From contig CBFGKC010000003.1 of NCBI GenBank assembly GCA_965649265.1, positions 117,641 through 181,640 of the forward strand: a DNA stretch of 64,000 bases, in the 5' to 3' direction. The notes below the pieces were generated by a model that made no database searches, was not told where the DNA came from, and saw only the letters and a program-made list of their open reading frames with translations. Below are positions 1-39,040 of this stretch, in pieces. Source of the stretch: a candidate division WOR-3 bacterium. GTDB lineage: Bacteria > Hydrothermota > Tepidihabitantia > B3-TA06. The translations under genes and the position numbers were made by a program. Every line of letters begins with the position of its first letter. The first letter of the stretch is position 1.

Positions 1-6
1 GGCGTT

Positions 7-9452: not shown

Positions 9453-9500
9453 CTTGACTGGATTTTACCGCATTCATTTGCAGAAGTCAAGCGCAGGCAC

Positions 9501-9529
9501 TTGACGAAGGGGTGATAATCCCTTATTAT
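9501..9529 (+). promoter_or_regulatory. Sigma70-like promoter of the giant histidine kinase
   Basis: TTGACG-N17-TATTAT, then GGAG RBS before the TTG start. Confidence 0.55.
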
Positions 9530-9556
9530 CTCAATATAATTACCTGGAGATAGCAT

Positions 9557-15500: not shown

Positions 15501-18304
15501 CAATGGAAAAATGGTATGACTATGCAATGCCACTTACCGGTAAAAAGTGTTACGAGGCTTACCATTCCAGAAATGAAAGTTGTGCATCGTGTCCAACCCT
15601 GCGTACAAGAGAAACGGGTGAAAAGGATTACGAGGTAGTACCTAAACGAGGACCCAAGGGGGAAATCATTGGGTGGCTTGAACTTTACAGCTTTCCTCTC
15701 AAGGATCTTTCTACAGGTAAGATGAAAGGTCTCATTGAATATGTTCGTGATATAACAGATCGAAAAGAAGCGGAGGAAGCTCTTAGAGAACGTGAAGAAT
15801 TATACAGAACTCTGGTTCATACGGCTCAAGAAGGCATAAGTCTGGTGGATCCGCAAGAGAAAATCCTTTTCGTCAATCCCAAGATGGCTGAATTGTTGGG
15901 ATACTTGCCCGAAGAACTCACAGGTAGGACCTTGACGGATTTCATGTCCCCAAAAGATACAGAGCTTATCATTAAGGAGACCCAGCGTCGAAAAAAAGGA
16001 GAAACGTCACGTTACGAGATTACACTTTATAATAAAGACAAGATACCAAGGGAAGTTCTTGTCAACGCTGCGCCTATTTTTGAAGCAGACGGGAAGTTAT
16101 ACGCGACTCTAGGGGTTCTGACAGACATCTCTGATATTAAAAAAGCCGAAGAGAAACTCAGGTTAAGGTTGCTATATCAAATCGCACTCTCGGAAATTCT
16201 TAACAGGGCAATAAAAGTTGAAGAGTTTGACAAGTTTTTAATGGATTCGTTCAAAACTCTAGGCAGGGTATTTGCTACCGACAGGGTTTACTTGGCAACC
16301 AATCTTGACAGAAGCGAAAGCTACAGAATAACCCATGAATGGTTTAAGGAAGGTGAGTCTTCTCTTTACGGTTCCGATTATGAGTACTCTGGAATGCGGG
16401 TTTTTTACGACAAATTAGCGAAGGATGAATTGGTAGTAGCTTATTCTAATGAAGAATCTATTGAAAAAAGTTTGCTTTTAAAAAACTCAAAGGCTCAATC
16501 AGGGATATTCGCTCCGCTTAAAATCAGAGACGGTTTTTATGGATTCATCGGTGTATGCAATTCTCAAGAATTTAGGGAATGGACAGAGTTCGAACTTGAA
16601 GAATTCCAGACTTTTATACGACTCATAAGTACCGTAATGGATCGTTTTTTTGAAGAGCAGGAAAGGCGCTTTGCCGAGAATGCACTTTCCGAATCGGAAG
16701 AACGTTACCGGACTCTTGTCGAGACCTCCACAGATATAATATTCCTGCTTACAACAACAGGTCAAGTGCTTTACGTTTCGCCGGCGACCAAAAGGCTGGG
16801 TTATAATCCGGGGGATATTATTAGGAATCCTGCGAATATCACCAAAGCGATTCCACAGGATGAACTGGTTACTCTAAAAGCGATTTTCACGAAGACTTTA
16901 AGGCAAGAGCACTCCGTTCACGAAATCGACACTGAGGTTTATGATGCGAAAGGAAATAGGCATTGGTTTTCTTTGAGTTGGAACTGGATAAGAAATGATA
17001 AGAGCGAAATAATCGCAGTTCAGGGTATAGCTAGAGATATATCTGAACGAAAAGAGACAGAGCGAGCGTTGCGTTTACGAATGGAATATGAGAAGGCTCT
17101 TTTTGAGGTTTCTTCCTTATTTCTTGCAGAAGGTGTCTCGGATACTTCAATTCACGAGTTCCTTGAACGTCTTGGAAGAGTTACTGAAGTTAGCAGGGTA
17201 TACATGTTTTCGCATGACAGGGACGAGGAAGATCGTTTATGTATGCGTCGAACACACCGTTGGGTCTCGGAGGCCTCCTCCAGTCTTGATAACGACAGTA
17301 TGGATAAAATTTACTATGACCAGGGATTTGAAAGGTGGTTGACCAAACTCTCCACAGGGGAAGATATGCACGGACTCGTTGGTAACATGCCACCGATAGA
17401 AAAAAAGCTCTTTACGCAAGAAGGCATAGTCGCATTCTTGGTTCTTCCGATATTCGTAGAAGGGCGCTTCTGGGGTGCAATTGGTTTTGACGAGGCCAGA
17501 GAGGAACGTGAATGGGACGTTGAGGATATAAGGCTTATCTGGACGGCCTCACAAAGTTTTTCTTCAGCTCTCGCCACCGAGAGCAAGGCGCGAGAACTCG
17601 CAATGTCTTACGAAAATCTACGGGAAAGAGAGCGACAGATAACCGATTTGCATATAAGATTAGTTAAGGCTGAGGAGGAAGAGCGCCGCCGTATTGCCCG
17701 TGTTCTTCACGATGAAATCGCCCAGCAGTTGACAGGCATTGCTCTGCTCTTATCCACTCCGGAGTTTAATTTGACCGAGCAATCCGAAGGTCGAATTAAG
17801 GAAGCAAAGGATATGGTCAAGGAGACACAGAAGTTCATACGTGATCTCTCTTATGATTTACGACCTCCCGCTCTCGATAATTTGGGCCTTCTGGCGGCAG
17901 TGAGGGCGTTAGCCAGATCGGTGGCTTTGGCGACAGGTGTCAGCTTTGATGTGGAGGCAGAAGAAGAAATTCCGCGTACGGAACCTGAGACGGAAATAAT
18001 GCTCTATAGAATAATTCAGGAGGCGGTTAACAATGCCCTTAAACACGCAGAGCCCGAAGAAATAAGAGTAATTTTCAAATACCGAAAACCGGTTCTTACG
18101 GTCGGTGTCAGCGATGATGGGAAAGGTTTTGAACTCGAGAAGGTTGCGGCCGAACATAGGGGAATAGGCTTGAACTCAATGCACGAAAGGGTTGCGCTTA
18201 TAGGAGGGAGAATGGAAGTTTCTTCAGCCCCGGGTAGGGGTACGCAATTAAAAGTAGAGGTTGAAATAAAACCCAATGTGAATATACTAAATCCGGAGGA
18301 GTAA
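9557..18304 (+). CDS. Giant cytoplasmic sensor histidine kinase (about 17 PAS, 3 GAF, HisKA_3, HATPase_c)
   Basis: Repeated DITERK..EEAL..SEERYR PAS linkers; GAF segments; ERRRIARVLHDEIAQQL, LRPPALDNLGL, NNALKHA, DDGKGF, GIGL. Confidence 0.95.
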   Translation: MEQEKKEIGALFQSLARRLPVVCISFDLKREIMDWNNGAEIFFGVSRKDALGRDFAEFVELSESDFKEVIEGNEKEFQEVVSRKLDGSKTVVKASFYPLRSQSGECNAIVMVGAEAVFSLQSTQVIESSDMYRSLSESASIGVCICFEDRFLYVNEQMSRITGYRVEELLKMLTSELVAPEDRERIDRITELREAGEAAKQTYSFRIIRKDGKRVCIDLHARDILYQGKKARLCHCIEITERMHAQEELRKITELYRSTIESMDDIVHVIDKEMNLVMYNHVMEKWASEAGIDLKKATGKSLFEVLPFLGEQIRDDYREVFEKGKVLVTNEKAERRDKTMITEVRKIPVKDKEGNVERVVTVIRDITEKNHSEKFLKASEELYRSTINAMGELIHVVDRNLRIIMYNLSFKLWTAELGMKLEDVKGRLVMEVFPFLSGKVFEEYMEVLKIGKPLVTHESNTISGRVIYTETRKIPVKNNKGEVERIVTVVRDITELKRAEQGLKLTNLELTQERNLFVSGPVVVFKWQNRKGWPVEYVSSNVENVLGYSAEDWITGVISYEDLIFEDDLARVSGEVNKYSDSEATSFNHEPYRLVCKDRRIIWVDDYTTIIKDDKGNITHYLGYIVDITERKTAEEALRKSEERYRNVTESIEDVIFSLTPAGEVIFVSGACEKIFGVSPESLVGKNLIDAASKVTVSKEEIERLVALHAENVAGKKEFLQYEFVFEREHEKKTLEIKQRMVYDKNGRLVNSFGILRDISDRKNAEQEIERTSQVLKNLLDISTEVSSNLNEEDVVNVIAERATELLRADGCTVYRMDPETDELVPKTTTIKEDREKRLSYRIPMGKGITGKAATERRAIIANDVEDSDDAIRIPGTKDLPRCLLVAPLIAQGELWGMMTLVRFNKEHFIERDLELLSLFANQVADAALNSTLFSLLVESEEKYRSFVEQALDGITIVQDGNIVFANQSVLRSLGYEMDDILNKDFFHIIAPGSRDLVKDRYLRRMKGENTPSVYETQLITKDGKILDVEVNAGIIRYAGRPADLVFARDIRERKIISEALRASEEFNRTVIEHSPLGVSVRSRTGKLLSVNKAWKRIWGISAEVLKKDMDKERSELHFDESDSYLGEWLDEIKKVYENGGYLHIPKLEIRKVKSSSPIWISHYFYAIKDPSGDVERVVILTEDITERIKAEEALRESEERYRKLVSLSPEAIIILLEGKIVFANNAAVRMLGASDPKELMGRPGLDFVHPYYKDIVSERMSKVENDGVSHPFLEEKLIALDGKELIVDSISIAFTYQGKPAVQLVAHDITARKRVEEALKESEELYRSLVETSPDAIVLSDLDNTIVKLNLRAALVLGVETPADLVGMNVLDFFVPEDRQRAKENAEKTLSEGKTLNIEYTGLQKDGTKIPIELSTSLVTDADGKPKGFISVARDITERKLAEQALAESEQKYHAISDMAAFGVIIHKDGKPLFANPMARKLLGYGEDEDVSGVSIIDDVIVSEDRKKALDIMEKRKSGAAPPVYDIRVKTKGGKIKTIEISGERIRYGGESAYMVSFVDITERKKAEEALRDSEERYRSVVETAKDAIVSTDSENRIIFWNREAQSMFGYSDEEIVGKPLTLIIPAGFREEHERGVAKIAEGGDLRYEGAAREGFGLRKDKTEFPIEFSVKAWKTAEGTFFTAIFRDVTERKHSEEALAKSEERYRLISESANDLITLNDESMKFLYHNVAVERILGFTSDEISKSSVLKLVHPDDRKAVAEAFVDAWSNKRSASLELRIGKKDGTYIWIESKGRPLFDEGGKVNRALIISRDITDRKLAEEALRESEERYRNLFQQANDAILVASLEGRILAANQKLSELCGFSEEELLSRNFGDIVAPEMTGIIPELLRQVKTRGGFFGEGVGVRKNGVKFPLEVSGSLIPWGKGQGMLVFLRDIGERKQAEEAVREGERFLASIFASIQDGLSILDNDLNIVRVNPTMEKWYDYAMPLTGKKCYEAYHSRNESCASCPTLRTRETGEKDYEVVPKRGPKGEIIGWLELYSFPLKDLSTGKMKGLIEYVRDITDRKEAEEALREREELYRTLVHTAQEGISLVDPQEKILFVNPKMAELLGYLPEELTGRTLTDFMSPKDTELIIKETQRRKKGETSRYEITLYNKDKIPREVLVNAAPIFEADGKLYATLGVLTDISDIKKAEEKLRLRLLYQIALSEILNRAIKVEEFDKFLMDSFKTLGRVFATDRVYLATNLDRSESYRITHEWFKEGESSLYGSDYEYSGMRVFYDKLAKDELVVAYSNEESIEKSLLLKNSKAQSGIFAPLKIRDGFYGFIGVCNSQEFREWTEFELEEFQTFIRLISTVMDRFFEEQERRFAENALSESEERYRTLVETSTDIIFLLTTTGQVLYVSPATKRLGYNPGDIIRNPANITKAIPQDELVTLKAIFTKTLRQEHSVHEIDTEVYDAKGNRHWFSLSWNWIRNDKSEIIAVQGIARDISERKETERALRLRMEYEKALFEVSSLFLAEGVSDTSIHEFLERLGRVTEVSRVYMFSHDRDEEDRLCMRRTHRWVSEASSSLDNDSMDKIYYDQGFERWLTKLSTGEDMHGLVGNMPPIEKKLFTQEGIVAFLVLPIFVEGRFWGAIGFDEAREEREWDVEDIRLIWTASQSFSSALATESKARELAMSYENLRERERQITDLHIRLVKAEEEERRRIARVLHDEIAQQLTGIALLLSTPEFNLTEQSEGRIKEAKDMVKETQKFIRDLSYDLRPPALDNLGLLAAVRALARSVALATGVSFDVEAEEEIPRTEPETEIMLYRIIQEAVNNALKHAEPEEIRVIFKYRKPVLTVGVSDDGKGFELEKVAAEHRGIGLNSMHERVALIGGRMEVSSAPGRGTQLKVEVEIKPNVNILNPEE

Positions 18305-18954
18305 TGGCAGAGAAAATAAGAGTTGTACTTATTGATGATCATACCGTAGTTCGTAAGGGTATTCGTGTACTCCTTGAACAGGAGCCGGATATAGAGGTAG
18401 TAGCGGAAGCCGAAGACGGTCTGAAAGGTGTAGATGTTTGTGTCGAATACGAACCAGATGTTGTTGTGCTGGACATGGCTTTACCTCTGCTTTCCGGAGT
18501 GGAGGCCGCAAGAAAGATACGCGAAAAAGTACCTGGAGCAAGAATTCTTATACTCTCCATGTATGATGATGAAGAATACATACTCGATTCATTCAAGGTT
18601 GGGGTATCCGGCTACATACTGAAAGACGTGGTAGTCTCCGATCTTGTCTCTGCGGTTCAAAGTGTGTATAGAGGATCAACATTTCTCTCTCCATCGGTAT
18701 CTGAGAAACTTCGCCGTCAGCTGCAAGAAGGTCAAACCCGAGGTGGATCAAAACAGGGGCCAGCAAAACTGACTTCACGCGAACGCCAGATCCTTAAACT
18801 AATAGCAGAAGGTTATACCAGCAAACAAATATCCGAGATACTCAAAATCAGTTTCAAGACCGTTCAAACTCATCGCGCCCACATTATGGAAAAACTGGGA
18901 GTCCATTCAACGGCAGAGTTGACTCGCTACGCGGTCACAAAGGGTTTACTGTAG
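18304..18954 (+). CDS. NarL/LuxR-family response regulator
   Basis: IDDHTVVR, VLDMALP receiver; LTSRERQIL..KTVQTHRAHIMEKL HTH; coupled to the kinase. Confidence 0.96.
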   Translation: MAEKIRVVLIDDHTVVRKGIRVLLEQEPDIEVVAEAEDGLKGVDVCVEYEPDVVVLDMALPLLSGVEAARKIREKVPGARILILSMYDDEEYILDSFKVGVSGYILKDVVVSDLVSAVQSVYRGSTFLSPSVSEKLRRQLQEGQTRGGSKQGPAKLTSRERQILKLIAEGYTSKQISEILKISFKTVQTHRAHIMEKLGVHSTAELTRYAVTKGLL

Positions 18955-19138
18955 CGCGAAGTAGAAAACCGTGTAAGGCCTTTTAAGTAGGCTCTAATAT
19001 AGGTTAGATGTCCTATTGATATAGGGACCCTTCCGAAGCACAATTCCAAAGTAAAATCGGTTATAGAAGTCGCTAATGTATCTATCCAAGCAAGAAGAGG
19101 GATGGAATAGACGTTTACGACGTTAATTAGGAAGCAAA

Positions 19139-19498
19139 ATGAAACACCGTGTATGGTTTGACGAAGATCACAATGCACTTAGGGTAAGATTGGTTGGGCA
19201 CTGCGACAGGAAAGATATTGTAGAACTTGGCAAGAGATTCCGGGATCTGCTTGGAGACAAGAAATCTCGGCGAGGTGTCATTGATCTCTCGGAGATAGAT
19301 TCCTTTCCTGATGAAGACACAAGGGAGCAGCTTGTGGATGAAACCAGCGCTGCCGGGTTTACAAAAGTCGCAGTTGTTGGAACCAGGCCTGAGATAAAGG
19401 TTGTGGGCCTCATAATCTTCGAAAGATTAGGCAAGGAGGTGGAAACAGAATTTTTTAACGAGGAAGCAAAGGCGATTGTCTGGCTCAACGGTGATTGA
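19139..19498 (+). CDS. STAS/SEC14 (SpoIIAA-like) small protein
   Basis: VIDLSE, KVAVVG, FFNEEAKAIVWL C-terminus. Confidence 0.7.
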   Translation: MKHRVWFDEDHNALRVRLVGHCDRKDIVELGKRFRDLLGDKKSRRGVIDLSEIDSFPDEDTREQLVDETSAAGFTKVAVVGTRPEIKVVGLIIFERLGKEVETEFFNEEAKAIVWLNGD

Positions 19499-19572
19499 GT
19501 AGTCTTGAAAAAAATTTGATACGAATTCAGGGTGAGCAGAACAAGGAAATTCCTGCACTCCTCCCATGGTCC

Positions 19573-19602
19573 GAAGGTCCCCGCCGCGAGGTTGGGACCT
19601 TC
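19573..19602. terminator. GC-rich hairpin between convergent genes, possible terminator
   Basis: GAAGGTCCC/GGGACCTTC perfect stem around CGCCGCGAGGTT; no strong U-tract. Confidence 0.4.
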
Positions 19603-19609
19603 TTCCTTA

Positions 19610-20137
19610 CTAACGATTCCTGTAACGAAGTTTAGCTGTAAGGATCTCTTTGAGCAGATCAGGTTCACGAGGTGAAACGAGCAAGTTTCTTTCACCGAGA
19701 AGTATCAATGCCTTTTTGGAGTTAGTAGCCTGCGCCTCGAATTTCCCCCATTCGCGATTGTGGAATGTGCCGAAGTAGCCGAAGAGACCTGCCGAACCTG
19801 ATATCTTTCGGGAGAGAGCCTTAAATCCAACGTCTACAAGCTCCATTCTTTCGAACAAATGCAGAGGGTATATCTTCTGCCCGAAGAAACGTCTGCGGAC
19901 CACGAATTCGGTATCCGTCAGCTTATATCCTGCCGGCGCCCATCCGGCAATGAGAAGCATCACTATTAGATAGAAGAGACCAATGCCCATTATAAACCAT
20001 CGGAGTGAAAATTCCTTCGCATACTTCTCATAATCAAAAGGGATCAAAGCCCCAACCAGAAAAATGAGAATCAGAATAACAAATACAATAAACCCCGCCT
20101 TGTTGGGGCGATCGAACTCAGCAATAGGAAAATCCAT
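19610..20137 (-). CDS. Membrane protein with a bacterial PH domain (bPH_5-like)
   Basis: Two TM helices then GSAGLFGYFGTF..WGKF..ATN..LVSP. Confidence 0.75.
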   Translation of the reverse strand: MDFPIAEFDRPNKAGFIVFVILILIFLVGALIPFDYEKYAKEFSLRWFIMGIGLFYLIVMLLIAGWAPAGYKLTDTEFVVRRRFFGQKIYPLHLFERMELVDVGFKALSRKISGSAGLFGYFGTFHNREWGKFEAQATNSKKALILLGERNLLVSPREPDLLKEILTAKLRYRNR

Positions 20138-28844: not shown

Positions 28845-29480
28845 CTATCCTTCTGTAAGACTGAAGTTGAAGGGGATACTCACAGGAACCTTTACCGGAA
28901 CGCCTCTTTGCTCACCAGGAGAGAACTTCCATTTGCGAGCCGCTTCGGACGCGGCGCGGTCCAGTTCGGGAAATCCCGAAGATTTCATAATCTTAACTTC
29001 TCCGACGGAACCGTCAGGGTAAACTATAGCCTCAATTATTACCTGTCCCTCCATACCGCTTTGTTTTGCGATCGGCGGGTAATCGGGCTTCGGGGAATAT
29101 TGAGGCGAAGGCTTCTTCTCTACTTTGTAATAGGGCACGATGGGAATATCGACCGCTTCTTCGGGTTTAGAGTAGATTTCTGCGAATTCAGTCTGTCCCA
29201 TGGTCGCGGCTTCAATTTCCTCTTCAGACGAAGCCGCCTCTGGGACAGCAGGTTTCACATCCGGGGGAGGGGCTACAAGATTCTCGACGTTTAGCTTGAT
29301 ATCCTCGGAAATAATCGCTTTTTCAACACCGCTTCTCTGGTAGGGTTTAATGTTAAAACGTTGAGGAATGAGAAGAAAAAGGATTATTGCCGCAAGCAGG
29401 GCACCTATGGTTCCCCAACGTATATTATAAGGATACGCTAGCTTGTAGTCAGCAGCTTTTGTTGCTGTTTTTGTGCTCAT
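28845..29480 (-). CDS. tonB: Energy transducer TonB
   Basis: N-terminal TM; PDYPPIAK..GMEGQV..SSG..LDRAA..WKFSPG. Confidence 0.9.
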   Translation of the reverse strand: MSTKTATKAADYKLAYPYNIRWGTIGALLAAIILFLLIPQRFNIKPYQRSGVEKAIISEDIKLNVENLVAPPPDVKPAVPEAASSEEEIEAATMGQTEFAEIYSKPEEAVDIPIVPYYKVEKKPSPQYSPKPDYPPIAKQSGMEGQVIIEAIVYPDGSVGEVKIMKSSGFPELDRAASEAARKWKFSPGEQRGVPVKVPVSIPFNFSLTEG

Positions 29481-29481
29481 A

Positions 29482-29904
29482 CTATCCTTCTTTCCAGTTG
29501 GTTGCGAAGGTCAGCTTTAAAGCCTGGACCTCCTTCATTTTTTCGATGAGATCACTTACCAGTGCGTAGCGAGCATCCTTATCTACACGTAAAAGCACGA
29601 CAAGATCGGGCTTCTCTTTGAGCCTGCGAGCGATTCGCGCGGCGAATTCATCGTTAGTCTTGACCAGATTGTCCTGAATACTTATGCGATTTCCTTTATC
29701 CACCCAAACGCTCAGGACATTACTGCGCAGCCTTATTCTCTGAGTCGCTTCCGCTCTCGGAACGTCAAGCCTCAAACCTTTCTCGCCGGTAACCGTCGTG
29801 GTGACCATGAAAAACAGCAAGAGAAGGAAGGCTATATCGGACATGGAGGCAGAAGGTATGGCGGCTTGTCCACGCGAACGTCTTACGAGCTTCTTTCCGC
29901 TCAC
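29482..29904 (-). CDS. exbD: Biopolymer transport protein ExbD
   Basis: SMSDIAFLLLLFFMV. Confidence 0.9.
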   Translation of the reverse strand: MSGKKLVRRSRGQAAIPSASMSDIAFLLLLFFMVTTTVTGEKGLRLDVPRAEATQRIRLRSNVLSVWVDKGNRISIQDNLVKTNDEFAARIARRLKEKPDLVVLLRVDKDARYALVSDLIEKMKEVQALKLTFATNWKEG

Positions 29905-30344
29905 TGGCCGCCTCCTTCTTCTTCGGACATAGGAACCAGGCTTATTCGGGTGGCTTTTGCCATCTTCACCTGGTCAAGAACGTCTATCATCACGCTGTAA
30001 GGGGCGAGTCTTGAAACCTTTAATGCGATGGAAACGGAATCCTTTGTTCGTTTCACTGCATCTTCAACTTTTGCCCGAATATCCATGGAATTGTCATACG
30101 ACTTGAGTGAGCCGTCCTGCTCCTCAATGAGGACCTTTCCTTCGGGTGAAACGTATATCTGCATGATGTTGCGGCCCGCAATCTTGACAGTTTCGCCCTT
30201 TTCGGGCAGGAGCATGGTCAGACCCTTTTCGCGGGCAAAAATAGCCGCAGTCATGAAAAAGATAATCAACAGAAAGGCGATATCCGACATCGAGGCTGAC
30301 GGAATCTCGGCGCTTGTTTTCTTCTTCTTTCTAAGAGAAATCAT
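29901..30344 (-). CDS. exbD: Biopolymer transport protein ExbD
   Basis: SMSDIAFLLIIFFM. Confidence 0.9.
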   Translation of the reverse strand: MISLRKKKKTSAEIPSASMSDIAFLLIIFFMTAAIFAREKGLTMLLPEKGETVKIAGRNIMQIYVSPEGKVLIEEQDGSLKSYDNSMDIRAKVEDAVKRTKDSVSIALKVSRLAPYSVMIDVLDQVKMAKATRISLVPMSEEEGGGQ

Positions 30345-30357
30345 TGCGGATTCCTTC

Positions 30358-30978
30358 TTAGTTCTTCAAGAGCCCCTTTTCAAGCAGGTAGTCGATCAAA
30401 GATGTGGCCGCCTGTTCCATATCGCGGGAGTAGCGGTCGGTCATCTGCGTGAAAAGGGTGTGCATGATAACGAGAGGGGCCGCGATAAAAAGACCTGCTG
30501 CGGTAGTAATAAGAGCTTCAGAAATACCTGAAGCCACGATTGTAGGTTCAACCTCGCCAGCCCTGGCGATGGCTTCAAAGGCTCCGATCATACCGGTGAC
30601 CGTACCCAAGAATCCTAGAATGGGGGCGAGGGTTGTGGACATGGATATCCACAGCATGCCGCGATCGAGAAATGCGAGTTCTGTAGCACCCGCAGCTGCA
30701 ATACTTTCTTCTACAAACTGACGACCCATTTTGACCTTAGCTAACCCGGCGGCCATTATCTTGGCCACGGGTTGAGGTGTAGAATCACAAAGCTCGCGAC
30801 CCGCATCTATGCCCCCTTTGTCGATGGCCGCAGACAGCTGATCCATGAACTTTAGAGGATTGAGACCCGCTTTAAACAAGAGGGTTATCAAGCGTTCGAT
30901 TACGAATGCAAGACCGATTATTGCCGTTAACAGAATAGGCCACATGATTGGCCCGCCTTTTTGCCACAGTTCGATCAT
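30358..30978 (-). CDS. exbB: MotA/TolQ/ExbB proton channel protein
   Basis: APILGFLGTVTGMI, GISEALITTAAGL. Confidence 0.92.
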   Translation of the reverse strand: MIELWQKGGPIMWPILLTAIIGLAFVIERLITLLFKAGLNPLKFMDQLSAAIDKGGIDAGRELCDSTPQPVAKIMAAGLAKVKMGRQFVEESIAAAGATELAFLDRGMLWISMSTTLAPILGFLGTVTGMIGAFEAIARAGEVEPTIVASGISEALITTAAGLFIAAPLVIMHTLFTQMTDRYSRDMEQAATSLIDYLLEKGLLKN

Positions 30979-31080
30979 TGTATAGCCTCCTTTAAGGGCT
31001 TCTTTAGTACTTCATTTTGAGTATAATCAAGGCGTCCTGCTTGTCAAGTGTTCCTTATTCTTGAGAAAGATGGTTGTATC

Positions 31081-33795
31081 CTACACAATTCCAAGCATCT
31101 CCAGCACGAACCTTGATGGTTTTGTCGCCTGACGGAACCTTCTTGCGGGGATGGTTACATAAAGATTCCTTTTTGCTCGTGAAAGACCCACATAGCAGAG
31201 TCTGCGTTCCTCATCAAGAAGGTCTTGAGAGTTGGTACTTCTTGTTGTCGGGAATACGCCCTCAATCATACCAGCCATGAAAACACATTCTGCCTCGAGT
31301 CCTTTAGCCGAATGAGCAGATAAAAGCTTTACTGCATCACTATTCCATTCTGCAAGTTCCAAATCCTCAAGCAGCGCCATCCTGTCAAGAAACAACCCAA
31401 GCTCACCCCTTTTATATGCTGAAGCGGCTACCCTTAACTCGCGAAAAGATTCTGCTACCCTCCCTTGCGAAAGCCTTTTTGATGCGTATTTCGATTCAGC
31501 GAGAAAATCCAACAAATCGCCAGGTGAAAATTCGTCAGCACTCCTTGAAAGCCCTTCCAACGTCTTAAGATATTCATTTATACCGTTTCTTGAGCGTGTT
31601 TTAGCATCCGGAGAAACTTGAGCAAGTCCAGATTCTGCAACAATTGTGTTTGTTTCAGGGTCAAGGCAAAGAAGCCAGTTTAAATGCGACGAGTCAACGG
31701 CTTTAAAGCCGGACTTGAGCATTCTCAGAATACCAAGGACATTGGTAACCTCCTCTTGTCCATGAAATGAGGTCGAACCGATGACCGTAAAGGGTATCTT
31801 TTCTGTAAGTAAAGCTTTTTCAAAGGCATGCGAGTAAGAATTTATTCTGTATAATATTATAAAATCCGACGGCCTTAAGCCTTCGTTTTGTATCAAGTTT
31901 GAAATCTTCGACGCTGCAAATCTTGCCTCATCCTGAGTGTCGCTTGCCTTGTATAACTCGAATACACCTTTCTCCCCGGCCAGCGCTAAGACAGGCACAT
32001 CCCGGGTGTTACGGGTGTTACGGGTGTTATTTCCTTTGAACTCAAGCTGCTGATGAAAATGCCCCGAAGGGGTACGGGTGTTAAATGAGTGGGCCATTAA
32101 GTTAGATAAAATCTTACGAATATCCTCCGTAATCCTGAAGCTTATAACCGACTCAACCTTTTTTAAACCCTCGAACTCCGCAAGAGCTCGATCGATCCGG
32201 GCAGGGTCGGCCCCTCTCCATGTGTATATGGACTGCAGCGGATCAGCCGTCAGAAAGAGCCCGGTATCCGGATTCAAAAGATGCTTAAGCATCCAGTACT
32301 GCAGCGCATCCACATCCTGGAATTCGTCTGCAAGGATAAACGAATACTTTTTCTGCCATTCTTCACGAACATCAGGGTATTTTTCAAGAATCCTGATTGT
32401 ATTGAGCAAAAGATCGTTAAAATCCAGGGCATCGTGTTCTTTTAATTCCTCTTTGTAGTTCCTGAAGAACTCCTCGAACTCATCTTCACCTTCTGCGGTC
32501 TTGTCGAGATCGGGAACCGATCCTTCGGATTCCGACACATTCCTTTTCGTAGCTTCAAGCTTGTCCAAAAGATAGTTGGTTTTATTGGCACCCCATCTTT
32601 TTGAAAGCGCTTCCTTCATTTCGCGAGGCGAGCGTATCTCGAACTCCTCGGGAAGATCGATCCTTGCACCCTCGCTTCGCAGGAACCGCAGGCAAAACGA
32701 ATGAAAGGTTTCTATCCAGGCGTCCGGGATTGTTCTTTCGATAAGTCTTTCGAGTCTTGCGCGAATCTCTTCCACGGCCCTGCGGGAAAAGGCGAGTACG
32801 AGCAGCTTATTTGCCGGGAGTTCTTGTTTTTCGATAAGATGACGGGCCCGATGAACGAGCATGGTGGTCTTTCCGCATCCGACCGAGCCCACGAGGAGAA
32901 GTCTTTTCTCGCTCGATTGCACGATATCTCTCTGCTCCGGGGTCAGGATGAGCCCCTCGACGCGGGTTCTTTCCGGGAATGCGCCGTTTGCATCTGCAAT
33001 CTCCGGCTTCCTGCCGTGTGCCGAAAGCATGTCCGATACGGCGAAAGCTTCCTTCGGTCTGTTCTCCGGTTTTTTTGCAAGCATGGCTTGAACCGTCTTG
33101 CCGAGTTCAAGGGGAATCTCGGCCCGCAAGGTCTGAAGCGGTGTCGGGGTATCGTTTGCGATCCTTGAACGAATCTCATCCAGATTATCTCCGTTAAAGG
33201 GCAGGACGCCTGCCAGCATCTCGTAAAGGATTACTCCGACGCTCCAGATATCGGATTCCTTTGTGAATCTTCCCTGCCAGGCTTCGCTGCTCATGTAGAG
33301 CGGGGTGCCTGCGACGGAGGCCGAAAGAGAGCCCTTCTTTAAAAATCGTGCCAGACCGAAATCGGCAACCTTTACCTCCCCCTCATCGGAGACGAGCACG
33401 TTTTCGGGTTTAAGGTCCCGGTGGACCAGACCCCTGGAGTGAGCGTAAGCGAGGGCGGAAAGAATCTTTTCCGTAATCCTGAGAGCCTCGGATATCTCCA
33501 GTCTTCCCCGCTCGATGAGGTCGCGTAACGAGCACCCCTTCACGTATTCGCTCACCAGTATGAACTGGCCGTCAATCTGGTCGGCGGAGTAGAATCGCAC
33601 GATATTCGGGTGTGTGAGAGAGGCTAGAAGACGGGCCTCATCCCGCAGCATCTGGACATCCTGGGGTCGCATGCGTGAGACCTTGAGTGCAAACTCTAAT
33701 TCCAGAATCGTATCCTGCGCGAGGTAAACGTCACCGAACTGGCCGCCGCCCAGCCAGCGGATGATGCGGTACTTGCCTAAAGTCTGTCTGATCAA
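31081..33795 (-). CDS. Hanks-type Ser/Thr protein kinase fused to a UvrD/PcrA-family SF1 helicase
   Basis: Kinase: LGGGQFGDVY, ALK, HRDLKPEN, DFG, DIWSVG. Helicase: GCGKTT, TFHSF, DEFQD, DPLQSIYTWRGA, HSAKGLE, EERRLCYVGLSRAK. Confidence 0.9.
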   Translation of the reverse strand: MIRQTLGKYRIIRWLGGGQFGDVYLAQDTILELEFALKVSRMRPQDVQMLRDEARLLASLTHPNIVRFYSADQIDGQFILVSEYVKGCSLRDLIERGRLEISEALRITEKILSALAYAHSRGLVHRDLKPENVLVSDEGEVKVADFGLARFLKKGSLSASVAGTPLYMSSEAWQGRFTKESDIWSVGVILYEMLAGVLPFNGDNLDEIRSRIANDTPTPLQTLRAEIPLELGKTVQAMLAKKPENRPKEAFAVSDMLSAHGRKPEIADANGAFPERTRVEGLILTPEQRDIVQSSEKRLLLVGSVGCGKTTMLVHRARHLIEKQELPANKLLVLAFSRRAVEEIRARLERLIERTIPDAWIETFHSFCLRFLRSEGARIDLPEEFEIRSPREMKEALSKRWGANKTNYLLDKLEATKRNVSESEGSVPDLDKTAEGEDEFEEFFRNYKEELKEHDALDFNDLLLNTIRILEKYPDVREEWQKKYSFILADEFQDVDALQYWMLKHLLNPDTGLFLTADPLQSIYTWRGADPARIDRALAEFEGLKKVESVISFRITEDIRKILSNLMAHSFNTRTPSGHFHQQLEFKGNNTRNTRNTRDVPVLALAGEKGVFELYKASDTQDEARFAASKISNLIQNEGLRPSDFIILYRINSYSHAFEKALLTEKIPFTVIGSTSFHGQEEVTNVLGILRMLKSGFKAVDSSHLNWLLCLDPETNTIVAESGLAQVSPDAKTRSRNGINEYLKTLEGLSRSADEFSPGDLLDFLAESKYASKRLSQGRVAESFRELRVAASAYKRGELGLFLDRMALLEDLELAEWNSDAVKLLSAHSAKGLEAECVFMAGMIEGVFPTTRSTNSQDLLDEERRLCYVGLSRAKRNLYVTIPARRFRQATKPSRFVLEMLGIV
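32003..32083. repeat. Intragenic copy of a dispersed repeat element, including 3x CGGGTGTTA
   Basis: 32024-32061 matches 59376-59413 at 34/38 nt, followed by CCCCGAAGG.GTACGGGT in both copies. Confidence 0.8.
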
Positions 33796-34709
33796 TTCCC
33801 TGCCGGAAAGAAGGAAGCCTGAAGGATCTCGGAGTTCCTTGCAAGGGCGCGTCCGACGAATCTTGAGTCTTCGAAACGCAGCTCCCGGCCTGCGGAGACG
33901 CCCGGATACAGGGACGGCTCGAGGCTTCCGATTCTTGAGATGATACGTTTGAGCGCCTTCGTATCCAGGGGCCTGGAGCCGGTTCCCGGTCCCCGGGCAT
34001 CGAGAGAGTAACCGGCGAGGAGCCGCGATGAGAGTTTGGAGAAGAAGGCCGGGCCGGCAGCGTATTCCACACCTAAAAGGTCCCTGTCCCTCGTAACGAT
34101 CATCCCCCTTGCATTGGCGAGCACCGCTGGATCGAGAACGAACCTGTCTGAATCCTGATTCATGGTCGCAGCAAGATCGTGGAATGAAGATGTTATCGAT
34201 TTAACCTTATGGGTGGTCAGTATCCTTGATACCTCGTCCCAAACCCTTCTCTGGGGAGCTTTGAAACCCCGCTCGTGCCTGAGTGAATCGTTGACGCCCC
34301 GGCACAGAATCGAACGCAGCCTGGGGTTAGTGCTCCCAAGGCTCCCCTCGAAATTTCCTGCACCCTCCCAGCGTCCCTCCTCAACGCACGCGACAGGCAT
34401 GCTAGCGCGCGTCCCGGCCTCTATCAATGCAGCGGTCGTCGATACCCTCGTCTGGCGAGCGCCGAATATCTCGTCGCCGTCAAGAAGAAAAAGCGGGTCG
34501 GTTCCCATGTTGTCAATGGCGACCTCGTCAACCTGCGGCATCTGGAGCTCGCTGACCGACACGGTACCGTTCCCCATGCCTTCTTCGAGCGTCAACGGAT
34601 TAAAGGGCGCCTCTCGCTCGCCGTCCAGCAAAGGGTAAACGACGAGGCTGCGAACAAAGAGCGGCTCATCGATCCTCAAATTCTCGAGCACGTCTCCGAT
34701 TCCTTTCAT
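33792..34709 (-). CDS. ARPP-1 family (DUF6569-like) protein
   Basis: PLFLLDGDEIFGARQTRV..PVACVEEGRW..QRRVWDEV signature; ATG at 34709 next to the rimI stop is preferred over 34805. Confidence 0.75.
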   Translation of the reverse strand: MKGIGDVLENLRIDEPLFVRSLVVYPLLDGEREAPFNPLTLEEGMGNGTVSVSELQMPQVDEVAIDNMGTDPLFLLDGDEIFGARQTRVSTTAALIEAGTRASMPVACVEEGRWEGAGNFEGSLGSTNPRLRSILCRGVNDSLRHERGFKAPQRRVWDEVSRILTTHKVKSITSSFHDLAATMNQDSDRFVLDPAVLANARGMIVTRDRDLLGVEYAAGPAFFSKLSSRLLAGYSLDARGPGTGSRPLDTKALKRIISRIGSLEPSLYPGVSAGRELRFEDSRFVGRALARNSEILQASFFPAGN

Positions 34710-34710
34710 G

Positions 34711-35271
34711 CTAGGCCTTCTTTCCCTCATTTCCCTTCTCGCCCGTCCCCCCGCTGGGGGACTCGCCCTCTGCGCCGGGACAGGCCTTGTCGTCTTTTTC
34801 GACAATTGCGAAGGAGTCGTCGAGAACGAGCGCCATCTCGTATGCGTCCGATGAATCCTCGTAGTAGCGTGAACGCATCCTGAGAATCCTGAAGCCGAAC
34901 TTCTCGTAGAGCCTTATAGCCGCAAGATTAGTCGTTCTCACCTCGAGATAGACGTACTTGACGCCCGTCGCTCTTGAACGCTCAAGGATCACCTCGATGA
35001 GCATGGTAGCAAGGCCTCTGCGCCTTGCCTTCTTGTTCACGGCGACATTGACTATGTGCATCTCGTCGGCTACCGTTCTTGCAAAGATATAACCATCAAG
35101 CTTGCCGCCCCCTCCCCCCTCTTCGACCACGAGCGAAATGGAATGGCCAAGTTCGAGTTCCTCCTGTAGCATGCGCATCGACCAGGGCGAAGGAAACGAG
35201 CCTTGCTCTATCTCGAAAACCCCGGCGAGATCGGAGCTAGACATTCGTCTTATCTTTGGGGTGTCTTGCAT
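34711..35271 (-). CDS. rimI: Ribosomal protein S18 alanine N-acetyltransferase
   Basis: EQGSFPSPWS, NVAV..RRRGLA, LEVRTTNLAAIRLYEKFGF; start uncertain (35244-35298). Confidence 0.9.
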   Translation of the reverse strand: MQDTPKIRRMSSSDLAGVFEIEQGSFPSPWSMRMLQEELELGHSISLVVEEGGGGGKLDGYIFARTVADEMHIVNVAVNKKARRRGLATMLIEVILERSRATGVKYVYLEVRTTNLAAIRLYEKFGFRILRMRSRYYEDSSDAYEMALVLDDSFAIVEKDDKACPGAEGESPSGGTGEKGNEGKKA

Positions 35272-35920
35272 CGGGTTTCCGCAGGTAGAAAGGTTCAAGC
35301 GGCTCGGGATCGACGGATTCGTCCCGCATCGCCCAGGCGAGCGCGGCGAGCGCCCGTGCAGAAGGCGCGGCGGCGTGATTTTCGAGTTTTATCAGCCTTT
35401 TTCCGAGAGCGGCCTCGATCTCGCTCGAGTATTTGACGAAGCCCGGACCGAAAACGGCCAGGTTCCCTTCGTGGCCGGCGAGCGCGGCGATCTCCGACGG
35501 AGCAACGATGACGGGTCCTGCCAATCTGTCCCCGCCCCTGTAAAGGGCGGCAAAGACCTCGCCCTTGTAGGCGTCCATGAGCGGGATTCTCAGACCCTCG
35601 ACATCAAAACCGACGCTTGCGTTCAGGACGTCGAGCGTCATGACCGGCACTATCCGCAGGTTCCTTGCGAACGCAATACCCTTTGCGGTCAATAGACCGA
35701 TCCGCAAGGCAGTGAACGATCCCGGTCCTATCGAAACGGCAAGAAGACCCAGGTCTTCAACTTTTCTTGCCGCTTCGCTCAGTACTTGCTCTATGAGTCC
35801 CGGAAGCACCTCGTTGTGGGTGGAACGGCTCTCGGCGTTCCGCTCGGTGACAACTTTTCCATCCTCCAGAACGGCCACGCCTGTCCACTGCGAAGAGGTC
35901 TCGATTGCCAGTAACGTCAT
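35237..35920 (-). CDS. tsaB: tRNA threonylcarbamoyladenosine biosynthesis protein TsaB
   Basis: LAIETS, SIGPGSFTALRIG, LEPFYLR. Confidence 0.93.
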   Translation of the reverse strand: MTLLAIETSSQWTGVAVLEDGKVVTERNAESRSTHNEVLPGLIEQVLSEAARKVEDLGLLAVSIGPGSFTALRIGLLTAKGIAFARNLRIVPVMTLDVLNASVGFDVEGLRIPLMDAYKGEVFAALYRGGDRLAGPVIVAPSEIAALAGHEGNLAVFGPGFVKYSSEIEAALGKRLIKLENHAAAPSARALAALAWAMRDESVDPEPLEPFYLRKPDARHPKDKTNV

Positions 35921-36348
35921 GACATGCGTTCCTCTAAGGGACCTCTAATCTCGATAACCCTCTCGTCATCCTTACCGTCGACAAAGCGAATCTCTATCTT
36001 ACTCGGTACACCGGGAAACCAGGTCGAGCGCTCGGCCCATTCGACGAGCATTATGCCGCCCGGGTCAAAAATCTCCCCCAGATGAAGCGAATCCACCGCT
36101 CCGGGTTCGAGCCTGTATAGATCCACGTGTTTCACGCGGGGAGTCGTCTCATACGTCCTTGCGATAATAAACGACGGGCTTTGCACGCGCCCCGAAAAAC
36201 CCAGCCCCGAGAGTATGCCCTGAATGAGGGTCGTCTTGCCGCTTCCGAGATCTCCGTAAAGTGCCACTACGTCGCCGGGCACAAGTACCCTCGCGATTTT
36301 CGCGCCAAGCGCCCTGGTCTCATCCCCGGTGTGCGTGACGTGCTCCAT
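35917..36348 (-). CDS. tsaE: tRNA threonylcarbamoyladenosine biosynthesis ATPase TsaE
   Basis: GDLGSGKTT, VQSPSF, HVDLYRL, VEWAE. Confidence 0.93.
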   Translation of the reverse strand: MEHVTHTGDETRALGAKIARVLVPGDVVALYGDLGSGKTTLIQGILSGLGFSGRVQSPSFIIARTYETTPRVKHVDLYRLEPGAVDSLHLGEIFDPGGIMLVEWAERSTWFPGVPSKIEIRFVDGKDDERVIEIRGPLEERMS

Positions 36349-36351
36349 CCA

Positions 36352-37116
36352 TTATCCCTTTTCTTCGAGTTTGTTCAAACGGTAAAGATGCCAGCATCCC
36401 TTGAGTGTGAGGTCGCGGTCGATGATTCCAATAGCCGAAGAGAGCGGTGCAAAGCGCTCGGCAAGCCCTCCTGTCGCGACGAAGGTGAAATCGATCTTCG
36501 TTTCTTTTCGCACGGCCGTCCGGGAAGCTTCTATAAAGCCGATGGTCAGAAGATAGAATCCCGACTGCATGCACTCTTCAGTGGAACGTCCAATGTAACG
36601 GGTGGGTTTCGCAAGCTCTATCTCGGGAAGCCTTGCGGTTGAAGACACCAGATGATGAAGGCTTTCGTCGAGTCCCGGGGCTATGATCCCACCGAGATAC
36701 TTTCCGTCGCTGGTCACGAAATCTATCGTCGTCGCCGTTCCGAAATCCACGACAGCCACATCCTTCCCGTACTCGTAGTAAGCCGCCACGGCGTTGGCTA
36801 TCCTGTCAGGACCTAGATTGGACAATGTTTTGTAATTGAGTTCGATACCCGTGACTATATAGGGTGAGACAACGAGCGGATGGCCGAGATTCATTCTCTG
36901 GCGGAACATGGATACGAACTTGGGCGTCAGGGATGGGACGACGGAACAAACGACGGCGTCGCGAGGTTCGCTCATGCCTAGCGTCTTCAGGTACACGTAA
37001 AGCTCGTCTGGTGTTCTTGTCTCCTCCGTCGTTATTCGAGTCACCGAAAGGATTTTTCCGCCCTCGGCCGTCGCTATCTTAGTCGATGTGTTCCCTATAT
37101 CTACGAGAATGATCAT
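36352..37116 (-). CDS. coaX: Type III pantothenate kinase
   Basis: VDIGNT, LGPDR, VDFGTATT, GGIIAPG, ATGG. Confidence 0.94.
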   Translation of the reverse strand: MIILVDIGNTSTKIATAEGGKILSVTRITTEETRTPDELYVYLKTLGMSEPRDAVVCSVVPSLTPKFVSMFRQRMNLGHPLVVSPYIVTGIELNYKTLSNLGPDRIANAVAAYYEYGKDVAVVDFGTATTIDFVTSDGKYLGGIIAPGLDESLHHLVSSTARLPEIELAKPTRYIGRSTEECMQSGFYLLTIGFIEASRTAVRKETKIDFTFVATGGLAERFAPLSSAIGIIDRDLTLKGCWHLYRLNKLEEKG

Positions 37117-37850
37117 TCGAGCCCCATTATGTGCGACAGGGAGAGTTCTAGTTTTTCTCCCCCGCTGGTTTCAATAAAGCCGTTTCCTTCCACGCTCATA
37201 TCGTAAAGTCTCCCTGTCAGTATCTCCTCTTTCCGGTAAAAACGGACAGGTTGATCCGAGCGAATCAACGCATCCCTGATCTCCGCGTGAAAGCCGGAAA
37301 ACCCCTCCGCTTTCAAACGATTTACACCGTCCATCACGCACGAGGTGAGTATTCTGAGAACGTTCCCCAGATCAAACAACCTGCCGGTCAACATGAACAA
37401 GGACGTCGCCGGAACGGAGAAATCACCCGAAAGCCACGATTGATTGACATTTACGCCGACGCCTATCCCTATGACATTCTCGTCGGAAAATTTCCAGGCC
37501 TCGGCGAGAATTCCAGCCAGTTTAGAGTGACCGAAAAGAATATCGTTCGGCCACTTCAGCGAGAGTCCATCCACCAATCCCGAAAGCTCGTTCATCACGA
37601 GATAAGCGCTTACCAGCGGCAAAGCCCAACTTTCCTTGATCTTGCGAACGACGAGAGTGAAATAGAGTCCGCCGTCGGGGGATAACCAGGTTCTGCCTAA
37701 CCTCCCCCTCCCCTCGAGCTGCCTTTTGGCCCACACGAGGTAGGGCGGTTTTGCCTTTATCTCGCGGGCGGCATCCTGCGTAGAGGATAGTTCCTCACGA
37801 TAGTGGACCAGGGTGAGTTCAAGCGTATTTTTCAGCACCTCATTGATCAT
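37113..37850 (-). CDS. birA: Biotin--[acetyl-CoA carboxylase] ligase
   Basis: SSTQ, QLEGRGRLGRTW, LKWPND, KLAGIL, GVGVNV; ATG at 37850 overlaps the upstream stop. Confidence 0.9.
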   Translation of the reverse strand: MINEVLKNTLELTLVHYREELSSTQDAAREIKAKPPYLVWAKRQLEGRGRLGRTWLSPDGGLYFTLVVRKIKESWALPLVSAYLVMNELSGLVDGLSLKWPNDILFGHSKLAGILAEAWKFSDENVIGIGVGVNVNQSWLSGDFSVPATSLFMLTGRLFDLGNVLRILTSCVMDGVNRLKAEGFSGFHAEIRDALIRSDQPVRFYRKEEILTGRLYDMSVEGNGFIETSGGEKLELSLSHIMGLE

Positions 37851-39040
37851 TTCTTCTCGAGTATCGCCAGGGGCATGTGAAGCAAAACGTACGTGTGATT
37901 GTGCGGACTCCTGAAGGTATATTCGGGATAATCGTTCATCTCGATTCCTTCCTTGATTGAAAGCATCATGCCCGATTCCAGGCGCAGTTCGAGATTGAAA
38001 AGCAGTCGCGCCTGGTTGTATCCCGCAGGCCCCTTCCATGGTTCAAGTATGGTAGTGTCGTTGTTGTATCGAGTCCGTTTTGACTGCTGGTATCCGGCTT
38101 CGACAAAAAGAAAGTCCAGGGGCTGCCAGCTTGCGAGGGCTGAAAAAACGTCCGTATCATTCCTGTAAGTTACCGAATCCATATCTCTCGAGATGTTCTG
38201 AAATCTATACTCGGTCCGGAGTTCAAGGCGCTCAGTCGGCCATACAGATATAAAAGGCTCGGCCCAGAAGTATCTCAGGGTATCGAAAACGACGACACCC
38301 TGGTCGGGCCAGCGGATTTCAGAGCGTTCAAGCATTGCCTCAAAACGCGTTCCGAGCCACACCCTTTCTACAGGTTTGATTTCAATCCTTCCCCAGGCCT
38401 TGCTCTTGTCGTATTTCTTTTCCCACACGTACTGAACGCTGTCAGGCCAGTCGAGATACTGGTCGGCCTGCGTGCCGAGCTCACCGTGGAATCTTAAACG
38501 CAGCCAATCCCGTTCGCCCCTGGCGTCGAGCTCGAATTTCAATGGAATTTTCCTGAAAGGGTCCCTTGTCGGGCCGGGCAGGGTATACATGAGACTGAAA
38601 CCGTGATCGAACCGCTGCATCATGCAGTAAAAGGCAATCCAATCGGTATTCTCTCTTCTCCAGGATATGCCGGCACCAAGCTCATTATAATTCTTCTGGT
38701 AATACGGCGAAATCGCCAGATGAGTATAAAGGTTCGGAACGATCATCATTGTCGGCTCGAAACGGTGCTCGGTAAGTGTGTCGTCATAGTTGCGATGCAT
38801 TTGAAACTGGTAGCGCAAGCTGAAACGCTTGTTGAAGGCGGCTTCGGTTTTCAATTCATATAACTGGTACCACCCCGAATGATCGAGGCAGCCCTGGGAA
38901 GTTCTGAATGCGGTGGTCGAACGTTCATACACCCACTCCCAGTATCTCGAAAACTGTGCGATGTTTACGTCCATGCCTCCGTAAATGTTTGTGTCCCCGG
39001 GCATGACGTATGCCAGTAATCCGAGCAGAAGTAAACCCAT
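37847..39040 (-). CDS. Hypothetical secreted / outer-membrane beta-barrel-like protein
   Basis: Short signal-like start; alternating aromatic beta strands. Confidence 0.55.
   Translation of the reverse strand: MGLLLLGLLAYVMPGDTNIYGGMDVNIAQFSRYWEWVYERSTTAFRTSQGCLDHSGWYQLYELKTEAAFNKRFSLRYQFQMHRNYDDTLTEHRFEPTMMIVPNLYTHLAISPYYQKNYNELGAGISWRRENTDWIAFYCMMQRFDHGFSLMYTLPGPTRDPFRKIPLKFELDARGERDWLRLRFHGELGTQADQYLDWPDSVQYVWEKKYDKSKAWGRIEIKPVERVWLGTRFEAMLERSEIRWPDQGVVVFDTLRYFWAEPFISVWPTERLELRTEYRFQNISRDMDSVTYRNDTDVFSALASWQPLDFLFVEAGYQQSKRTRYNNDTTILEPWKGPAGYNQARLLFNLELRLESGMMLSIKEGIEMNDYPEYTFRSPHNHTYVLLHMPLAILEKK

Follow-up and report, generated by a model that had tools for sequence, protein, structure and literature searches.

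An ARPP-1 gene and a Ser/Thr kinase-UvrD helicase fusion gene as a candidate conserved pair in candidate division WOR-3

The ARPP family was defined by Iyer, Burroughs, Anantharaman and Aravind (2022, Viruses 14:1977; PMC9503650), the only publication bearing on ARPP that we found. According to its main text, a Cys and a Gln are absolutely conserved in ARPP proteins, and the fold is a novel one, whose core is a four-stranded beta-meander that is duplicated and has an inserted beta-barrel carrying the conserved residues. They were found in systems with ADP-ribosylglycohydrolases (ARG) and phosphatases and in two-gene neighbourhoods with HIRAN, WYL or PF01522 proteins; they were proposed to act on sugar moieties (riboses, DNA ends), perhaps covalently like SRAP. 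HIRAN binds DNA 3' ends. The main text, to which this count is confined, uses the name UvrD 0 times and places no protein kinase beside ARPP. Here we describe an ARPP-1 gene that overlaps the start of a gene for a Hanks-type Ser/Thr kinase fused to a UvrD-type helicase. The pair occupies positions 31081-34709 of a stretch of 64,000 nucleotides (nt) of contig CBFGKC010000003.1 (GCA_965649265.1) from a candidate division WOR-3 bacterium; this whole stretch is termed the window below, and all genes of interest in it are on the minus strand.

Like the two-gene neighbourhoods of PMC9503650, the window pair has a PF20208 protein with the conserved Cys and Gln coupled to a single partner gene, and helicases of superfamily 1A (SF1A), to which the partner is related, engage 3' single-stranded DNA much as HIRAN binds 3' ends. 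It differs from the systems described in the main text of that paper in its kinase-UvrD partner and in being housekeeping-associated and vertically inherited rather than part of a variable conflict island. No ARG, rhodanese-phosphatase, WYL or HIRAN gene adjoins the window pair, and no ARG or phosphatase was found among the 20 other neighbour proteins annotated at related loci, a search that covered these neighbours and not the whole genome.

The fusion shares its domains and all core motifs with the SF1A helicases PcrA, UvrD and Rep (1pjr, 2is1, 9dci, 1uaa) and differs from them in having an N-terminal kinase, in lacking the C-terminal tail and in being an extra copy in its genome. Its scores are below the NCBIfam equivalog cut-offs for pcrA (313.8 vs 911.2), uvrD (266.6 vs 1144) and rep (260.9 vs 951). 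The PknB_PASTA_kin score is likewise under its cut-off (237.8 vs 450), and the protein is not a PASTA and transmembrane (TM) receptor kinase of the PknB/Stk1 type: the kinase is followed by a linker and a helicase, not by a TM segment and PASTA repeats. A DNA input is described for YabT of Bacillus subtilis, a Hanks kinase activated via a DNA-binding motif, which according to the title of the paper phosphorylates a bacterial recombinase (PMC3708118, PMC6333020), and a DNA-damage-responsive kinase is described in Deinococcus radiodurans (PMC6052341). YabT, like the fusion, is a Hanks kinase without an extracellular sensor, but the DNA input of the fusion is putative; as described in those reports, YabT binds DNA through a short basic motif and is anchored in the membrane, whereas the fusion is soluble and has a complete ATP-driven helicase and an ARPP-1 partner.

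Neither a kinase-UvrD fusion nor its pairing with ARPP-1 was found in any published account, in line with the initial annotation, which did not recognise the architecture as a named system. The pair is a new combination of known domains, and the fusion is a new partner for ARPP.

The kinase-helicase fusion

Pfam searches of the 904-residue protein identified Pkinase (E 7.1e-54), UvrD-helicase (PF00580, E 2e-60) and UvrD_C (PF13361, E 2.5e-35) and no PASTA or further domain. This agrees with the initial annotation, which had described a soluble Hanks kinase without TM or PASTA domain fused to a UvrD helicase. The closest solved relatives by sequence are StkP and PknB for the kinase and PcrA (1pjr, E 5.1e-68), UvrD1, UvrD and Rep for the motor. 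The fusion is well conserved, with a mean column identity of 50% in an alignment of 62 fusions.

The kinase residues K38, E53, H125, D127, K129, N132, D145-F146-G147, T164-P165 and E171 are invariant in this alignment, and the window kinase carries K38, E53, H125-R126-D127, K129, N132, D145-F146-G147 and E171. The set that characterises Hanks kinases (VAIK Lys, alphaC Glu, HRD Asp, Asn, DFG Asp and APE Glu) is complete, and the domain looks like an active Ser/Thr kinase of this type. On the helicase side, Walker A is G303-x2-G306-x-G308-K309-T310 and motif II is D490-E491-x-Q493-D494; G303, G306, G308-K309-T310, D490-E491, Q493-D494, R527, R554, R650, R865 and R873 are invariant in the 62 fusions. 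Both domains, Walker A, the DExx motif and the motif VI Arg typical of SF1A helicases of the UvrD/PcrA/Rep kind are present, and the helicase half looks like an active 3'-5' DNA motor.

Several peculiarities reported initially were borne out, two of them with a narrower scope. The change of the APE motif to SSE (S169 S170 E171) is found in the window copy only; the orthologues retain A-P-E and the Glu is invariant. The divergence of motif IV is likewise restricted to the window copy (LYRINSYSH...IGSTSFHGQ vs the family consensus LYRxNxxSR...IGGxxFYER). The C-terminal Tudor-like tail is indeed absent, since the protein ends 23 residues past UvrD_C, which leaves no room for it.

The AlphaFold2 (AF2) model of the fusion has a mean predicted local distance difference test score (pLDDT) of 84.2 and a predicted template modelling score (pTM) of 0.57, with two confident modules and a disordered linker; pLDDT is below 50 at residues 261-280 of the linker, which are predicted to be disordered. 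The protein is thereby modelled as two rigid modules on a flexible linker of about 20 residues. The window copy also has a specific insertion of 24 residues (571-594), missing in more than 60% of orthologues in an alignment of 21 fusions; pLDDT is below 50 at residues 574-598, and this part is predicted to be disordered as well.

The genome of the window also encodes a canonical UvrD-family gene (an open frame of 720 aa) and an AddA-like gene. The fusion is therefore an additional helicase. Three further Pkinase domains were found elsewhere in the genome within open frames of 1693-1728 aa.

All 120 best matches to the fusion in a collection of 5.8 billion proteins carry both Pkinase and UvrD, with lengths of 834-905 aa. 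Where a name is given at the source, it is UvrD-helicase or PcrA, and the organism is candidate division WOR-3, TA06 or simply 'bacterium'; the database label of the fusion is only 'UvrD-helicase domain-containing protein'. Among 151 sampled genomes of the phylum, a match at E <= 1e-60 was obtained in 52; 48 of these matches start within the first six residues and extend into the helicase in an uninterrupted open reading frame (ORF), and the remaining four are helicase only. The possibility that the fusion is an assembly artefact, raised with the initial annotation as a way to refute it, is overturned by these 48 genomes and the 120 database matches, which also argue against chance.

The fusion is single-copy. 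Seventeen families hold it, and in 13 of them no sampled genome lacks it, for example f13 (8/8), f24 (5/5), f7 (4/4) and the window's own family, f1 (3/3). It is absent from f3 (0/15) and f16 (0/20), and the single match in the 14 genomes of f14 is helicase-only. In a tree of 21 fusions the number of family changes is 10, the minimum. A contig scan with the fusion alignment returned plain UvrD-type loci in 80 of the 80 cases listed, starting at query residue 264 or later and almost all near 284; the scan patterns (HRDLKPEN and a stretch of motif V) are generic, and this result is uninformative on the spread of the fusion outside the phylum.

ARPP-1 clades and their association with the fusion

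The ARPP-1 gene of the window was correctly named in the initial annotation: its product matches Pfam PF20208 over positions 2-297 of the 297 of the profile, far above the cut-off (E 6.9e-62; 209.9 bits vs 27). Of the 151 genomes, 61 hold ARPP-1. We collected 69 copies and built a tree of 68, leaving out the copy of G125, which a contig end truncates; the typing excludes five ARPP matches that are weak or partial (G117, G144, G088, G122, G138) and two fragments in G009.

The tree splits into two clades at a branch with a Shimodaira-Hasegawa-like approximate likelihood ratio test (SH-aLRT) value of 100. Type A includes 45 rows, all from fusion genomes, of which 16 adjoin the fusion and 29 are unlinked to it; no type-A copy occurs among the typed non-fusion genomes. 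Together with the cut copy of G125, the type-A copies cover 46 of the 48 fusion genomes. Type B, the clade with signal peptides, includes 23 rows: all 12 rows of the 10 non-fusion genomes and 11 rows from 10 fusion genomes. The window genome has one copy of each type. Its type-B paralogue (332 aa) begins with the signal-peptide-like sequence MKFLIPLALALLGSTSG, and no signal peptide is visible in the translation of the type-A protein of the window. The exported type-B clade occurs across the phylum with or without the fusion.

The residues G78, Q86, R88, V106, C108, E110, R113, R132, Q153, W157 and G202 are invariant in the 68 sequences, and the window protein retains Q86, R88, C108, E110, R113, R132, Q153 and W157. 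The hallmark Cys and Gln of the family definition are found among them (C108, Q86 and Q153). Type A has in addition P105, S175, H177 and an insertion of 9 residues. The invariant cluster of Cys, Glu, Arg, Gln and Trp suggests that ARPP-1 is an enzyme or a covalent sensor. The AF2 model is confident (pLDDT 91.9, pTM 0.91), with a strand-rich region at 50-126 bearing Q86-W114 and more sheets at 202-217 and 266-302. A Foldseek search of the Protein Data Bank with this model found nothing at E <= 0.001; in a VIA wide search the best Z was 5.2 over 65 residues of the barrel (59-126), which is below a meaningful level, and the best matches were phage baseplate proteins and other small barrels.

In 16 of the 48 fusion genomes, from seven families, the two genes are neighbours on the same strand. 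ARPP-1 precedes the fusion in 14 genomes (f1, f2, f5, f7, f9) and follows it in two (f11, f25). The genes overlap by 4 nt at seven of these 16 loci (f1, f2, f9), are separated by 3-8 nt at four and by 32-464 nt at five. The flanks vary by family, and only the pair itself is common to the seven. In f1 they include t6A (N6-threonylcarbamoyladenosine) and biotin genes and ExbBD, in f5 and f7 a TonB-dependent receptor gene, and in f9 radical SAM and Nth genes; a rhomboid gene is also among the neighbours. In G042 the pair is followed by a PLDc_2 (PLD-family) nuclease gene with an OB-fold match (L074:4703-5497), and in G052 by a PF01522 polysaccharide deacetylase gene (L075:10493-11140), a partner family named in the main text of PMC9503650. 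Both genes are missing from f3, f4 and f8 of the window's class, and joint absence is observed outside that class too. Co-occurrence beyond the window, a check that accompanied the initial annotation, is thus observed both as adjacency in seven families and as the confinement of type A to fusion genomes. Judged from these patterns, type-A ARPP-1 and the fusion are a predicted conserved functional pair in the phylum, and the pair is conserved and apparently vertically inherited there.

A motif-based sample of metagenomes gave 119 loci, 87 of which encode an ARPP homologue, five with the fusion next door; the scan used a degenerate motif, and most of the 87 loci are distant members, many too short to judge neighbours. 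At two of these five loci (L349 and L372) the fusions are only 32-44% identical to the query orthologues. A complex prediction for ARPP-1 with residues 262-904 of the fusion, without the kinase domain, scored 0.00 in two runs with no controls and speaks neither for nor against contact.

The neighbours of unlinked ARPP-1 genes are ndk, asparaginase, OTCase, NUDIX, cdaA, accC and STAND-like GGDEF/TPR genes. In f13, type-A ARPP-1 is followed by genes for STAND-like proteins with GGDEF, AAA_16 and TPR domains (1054 aa) and with AAA_16 and TPR domains (898 aa), with a NUDIX gene on the other side; this arrangement (L042:7150-12985 and relatives) is kept in four genomes of one genus. In f9 and in G053, an HhH-GPD (endonuclease III-like) base-excision gene is one or two genes away from the fusion (L065:5032-5652, L071, L078), which may hint at a connection with abasic-site repair.

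Possible functions of the pair

We tentatively favour a role in genome maintenance rather than phage defence, with the pair acting as a vertically inherited module for DNA-linked phospho-signalling or repair, a reading to which we give a little less than an even chance. The initial annotation had proposed defence or damage signalling, and the defence half of this proposal is not supported: the fusion is single-copy and vertically inherited, its matches in PADLOC and NCBIfam are generic, and the neighbours that were annotated have housekeeping roles (among them genes for t6A, a biotin ligase, CoaX, ExbBD-TonB, TonB-dependent receptor, radical SAM, Nth, rhomboid).

We propose that the helicase part would load on single-stranded or damaged DNA and track along it with ATP. 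Tracking could position or activate the tethered kinase at a DNA site, by a logic akin to that of YabT. ARPP-1 might bring chemistry on lesions or sugar moieties, or be the regulator or substrate of the kinase, and as output the kinase would phosphorylate proteins of DNA repair or replication, or ARPP-1 itself. Translational coupling in the window could provide matched amounts of both proteins.

In a more specific and rather improbable version, the fusion would be a phylum-wide DNA-tracking checkpoint kinase: the SF1A motor would carry the Hanks kinase on single-stranded DNA, and a Cys-dependent ARPP-1 would mark or covalently capture sugar lesions and thereby arm or aim the kinase. The lesions could be abasic sites or ADP-ribosylated or otherwise modified DNA ends, and damage would be converted into protein phosphorylation.

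If the motor switches on or positions the kinase, the fusion would offer a simple model, suited to expression in the laboratory, for learning how a DNA state is turned into a phospho-signal. To our knowledge, few bacterial Ser/Thr kinases have a DNA input, and we came across no description of one joined to a complete helicase motor. The favoured reading, if true, would also give a first biochemical handle on ARPP-1, a widespread domain with an apparently unmatched fold and a conserved Cys/Glu/Arg site that is known only from genome context; the checkpoint version would parallel in bacteria the logic of the DNA-damage kinases of eukaryotes and would be the first function assigned to the ARPP fold. 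The phylum is uncultured, and lineage-wide genes are among the few clues to its genome maintenance.

Several observations weigh against the genome-maintenance reading. Two fusion genomes have no ARPP-1 match, G150 (94% complete) and G115 (75% complete). Type-A ARPP-1 is unlinked to the fusion in 30 of the 48 fusion genomes, about two thirds, and lies there amid unrelated housekeeping genes; a partnership would therefore have to act in trans or be less tight than an obligate complex. Because the genomes are kin, the co-occurrence counts overstate independence; kinship labels give at least one event within the window's class and one outside it. The window copies depart from the consensus at APE, in motif IV/IVa and, with D in place of E, at position 79 of ARPP-1. 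No informative fold match was obtained, and the chemistry of ARPP-1 is therefore a conjecture taken from the 2022 paper. Binding, phosphorylation and DNA dependence are putative for the pair. Finally, the first description of ARPP in predicted conflict systems (PMC9503650, main text) keeps the defence reading alive.

As an undescribed two-gene anti-phage system, which we consider unlikely, the helicase would sense phage DNA or replication intermediates, the kinase would phosphorylate and ARPP-1 would be the sensor or effector. On this view the kinase would act on host or phage targets in an abortive response like that of Stk2 or PD-T4-6, and ARPP-1 would act on signals of the ADP-ribose type. 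The reading draws on the definition of ARPP inside predicted conflict systems (PMC9503650, main text), on the PLD-family nuclease gene 3' of the pair in G042 and on PADLOC matches of the kinase to mad6 (1.2e-75) and PD-T4-6 and of residues 284-567 to the GajB model (1.2e-71). These matches are however to single domains and generic to Hanks kinases and UvrD helicases, the NCBIfam MAD6 model gives 182.3 bits where its cut-off is 460, and no PADLOC match was obtained for ARPP-1. The likeness to Gabija GajB, MADS MAD6 and PD-T4-6 is at the level of domains only, and no GajA-like or MADS partner adjoins the fusion, whose neighbours are ARPP-1 and exbB.

The distribution of the pair also argues against defence. 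Mobile defence genes are patchy, whereas the fusion is complete in 13 of 17 families and single-copy and its tree follows taxonomy; no defence gene was found among the annotated neighbours, which are housekeeping genes instead. Conflict proteins usually evolve fast, and the mean column identity of the fusions is that of a well-conserved protein. Of the 80 loci listed from an IMG/VR scan none spans both domains (all are kinase-only, many on GVMAG records), which is weak evidence. If the pair is nevertheless anti-phage, it would be unusual among defence systems in being fixed across a phylum and passed on vertically there.

It is similarly doubtful that the two genes have separate functions, their adjacency and co-occurrence resulting from shared ancestry and operon hitch-hiking; the fusion would then be a self-contained regulated helicase, and ARPP-1 would act on an unrelated small-molecule sugar. 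The unlinked genes of 30 fusion genomes fit this explanation, as does the relatedness of the genomes, with co-occurrence being in part phylogenetic inertia, and the contact between ARPP-1 and the fusion is a presumed one. Against it, adjacency persists in seven families with otherwise unrelated flanks and in both gene orders, stop and start overlap at seven of the 16 adjacent loci, type A is found only in fusion genomes whereas type B occurs with or without the fusion, and both genes are missing together from f3, f4 and f8.

PcrA and UvrD work with RNA polymerase in model bacteria, and their C-terminal tail is the part that binds it. An action of the helicase on RNA or on the transcription or translation apparatus (RNA-polymerase backtracking, R-loop removal) under control of the kinase, tied in the window's family to the t6A/rimI operon that the pair ends, is the least probable explanation: the pair does come after tsaE-tsaB-rimI in f1 and there is a weak generic match to Bud32, the KEOPS kinase, but the tail is absent, the t6A context is limited to one family and the Bud32 score is far under its cut-off (41.7 vs 188 bits).

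Three other candidate links were rejected. A Bud32/KEOPS connection to the upstream tsaE-tsaB genes fails on the same score and the same single-family context. A toxin-antitoxin arrangement (a hipBA-like upstream overlap with a kinase) was rejected because ARPP-1 and the fusion are unlinked in most fusion genomes. TonB-system genes (ExbB/ExbD/TonB, TonB-dependent receptors, TonB_C) are found repeatedly next to ARPP-1 or the fusion in several families (window 28845-30978; L066-L073; L080), which may only reflect the many such genes in these genomes. They were rejected as part of the system because it is with the receptor genes that an unknown gene of 144-175 aa (c4) travels, and because families do not share these flanks.

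The locus and its surroundings

The ARPP-1 gene starts with ATG at 34709 and ends with TGA at 33792-33794, and the fusion starts with TTG at 33795-33793. Direct reading of the sequence thus confirms the overlap by TTGA noted initially (Table 1). Two points make the TTG start credible: the kinase domain begins as early as residue 9, and the starts of orthologues align with this start. The stop codon TAG of the rimI-like gene lies 1 nt ahead of the ARPP-1 ATG. The pair was initially said to close a birA-coaX-tsaE-tsaB-rimI operon, and Pfam supports this gene order, which is however peculiar to f1, where it was found in all four genomes looked at (the window's own and three others). The fusion is followed by a gap of 102 nt and exbB-exbD-exbD-tonB. 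A sigma-70-like site ahead of exbB matches the consensus at 11 of 12 positions, and the pair is therefore placed at the end of the upstream transcription unit.

Table 1. Features of the ARPP-1 and fusion locus and related features of the same genome (window positions unless a genome or locus prefix is given)
Feature	Position	Strand	Basis
ARPP-1 gene, 305 aa, type A (cytoplasmic clade)	33792..34709	-	PF20208; clade placement; AF2
TTGA overlap (ARPP-1 stop TGA and fusion start TTG share bases)	33792..33795	-	direct reading of sequence
Kinase-helicase fusion gene, 904 aa	31081..33795	-	Pfam Pkinase, UvrD-helicase and UvrD_C; database matches; AF2
Hanks-type Ser/Thr kinase domain, residues 9-248	33052..33771	-	Pkinase; conserved residues in 62 fusions
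Linker, residues 249-283 (35 residues), without TM segment	32947..33051	-	AF2; no Pfam domain
UvrD/PcrA-type helicase, N-terminal half, residues 284-540	32176..32946	-	PF00580; invariant columns; PcrA 1pjr
Low-complexity insertion of 24 residues with NTR repeats, residues 571-594	32014..32085	-	alignment of 21 fusions
UvrD_C, residues 780-881, motifs V and VI	31153..31458	-	PF13361; H828, K831, G832, R865, R873 invariant
Sigma-70-like promoter match, 11/12, in gap before exbB	31020..31047	-	consensus scan; pattern match only
GNAT/rimI-like gene, upstream, co-oriented	34711-35298	-	Pfam
tsaB, upstream, co-oriented	35237-35920	-	Pfam
tsaE, upstream, co-oriented	35917-36348	-	Pfam
coaX, upstream, co-oriented	36352-37116	-	Pfam
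birA-like gene, upstream, co-oriented	37113-38039	-	Pfam
Type-B ARPP-1 paralogue, 332 aa, directly after TonB_C-domain gene, outside window	L041:6077-7072; G000:C6:165127-165975		
Pkinase domains elsewhere in the genome	G000:C1:271559-272290, C4:131900-132640, C7:156016-156750		open frames

An ORF of 397 aa at 37847-39040 lies upstream of the birA-like frame and overlaps it; it has no Pfam match, and its position is kept in two other f1 genomes (cluster c12). The G+C content of window positions 1-4000 and 8001-20000 is 0.42-0.46, against 0.50-0.57 in the remainder, and GC and AT skew are strongly positive in these two parts.

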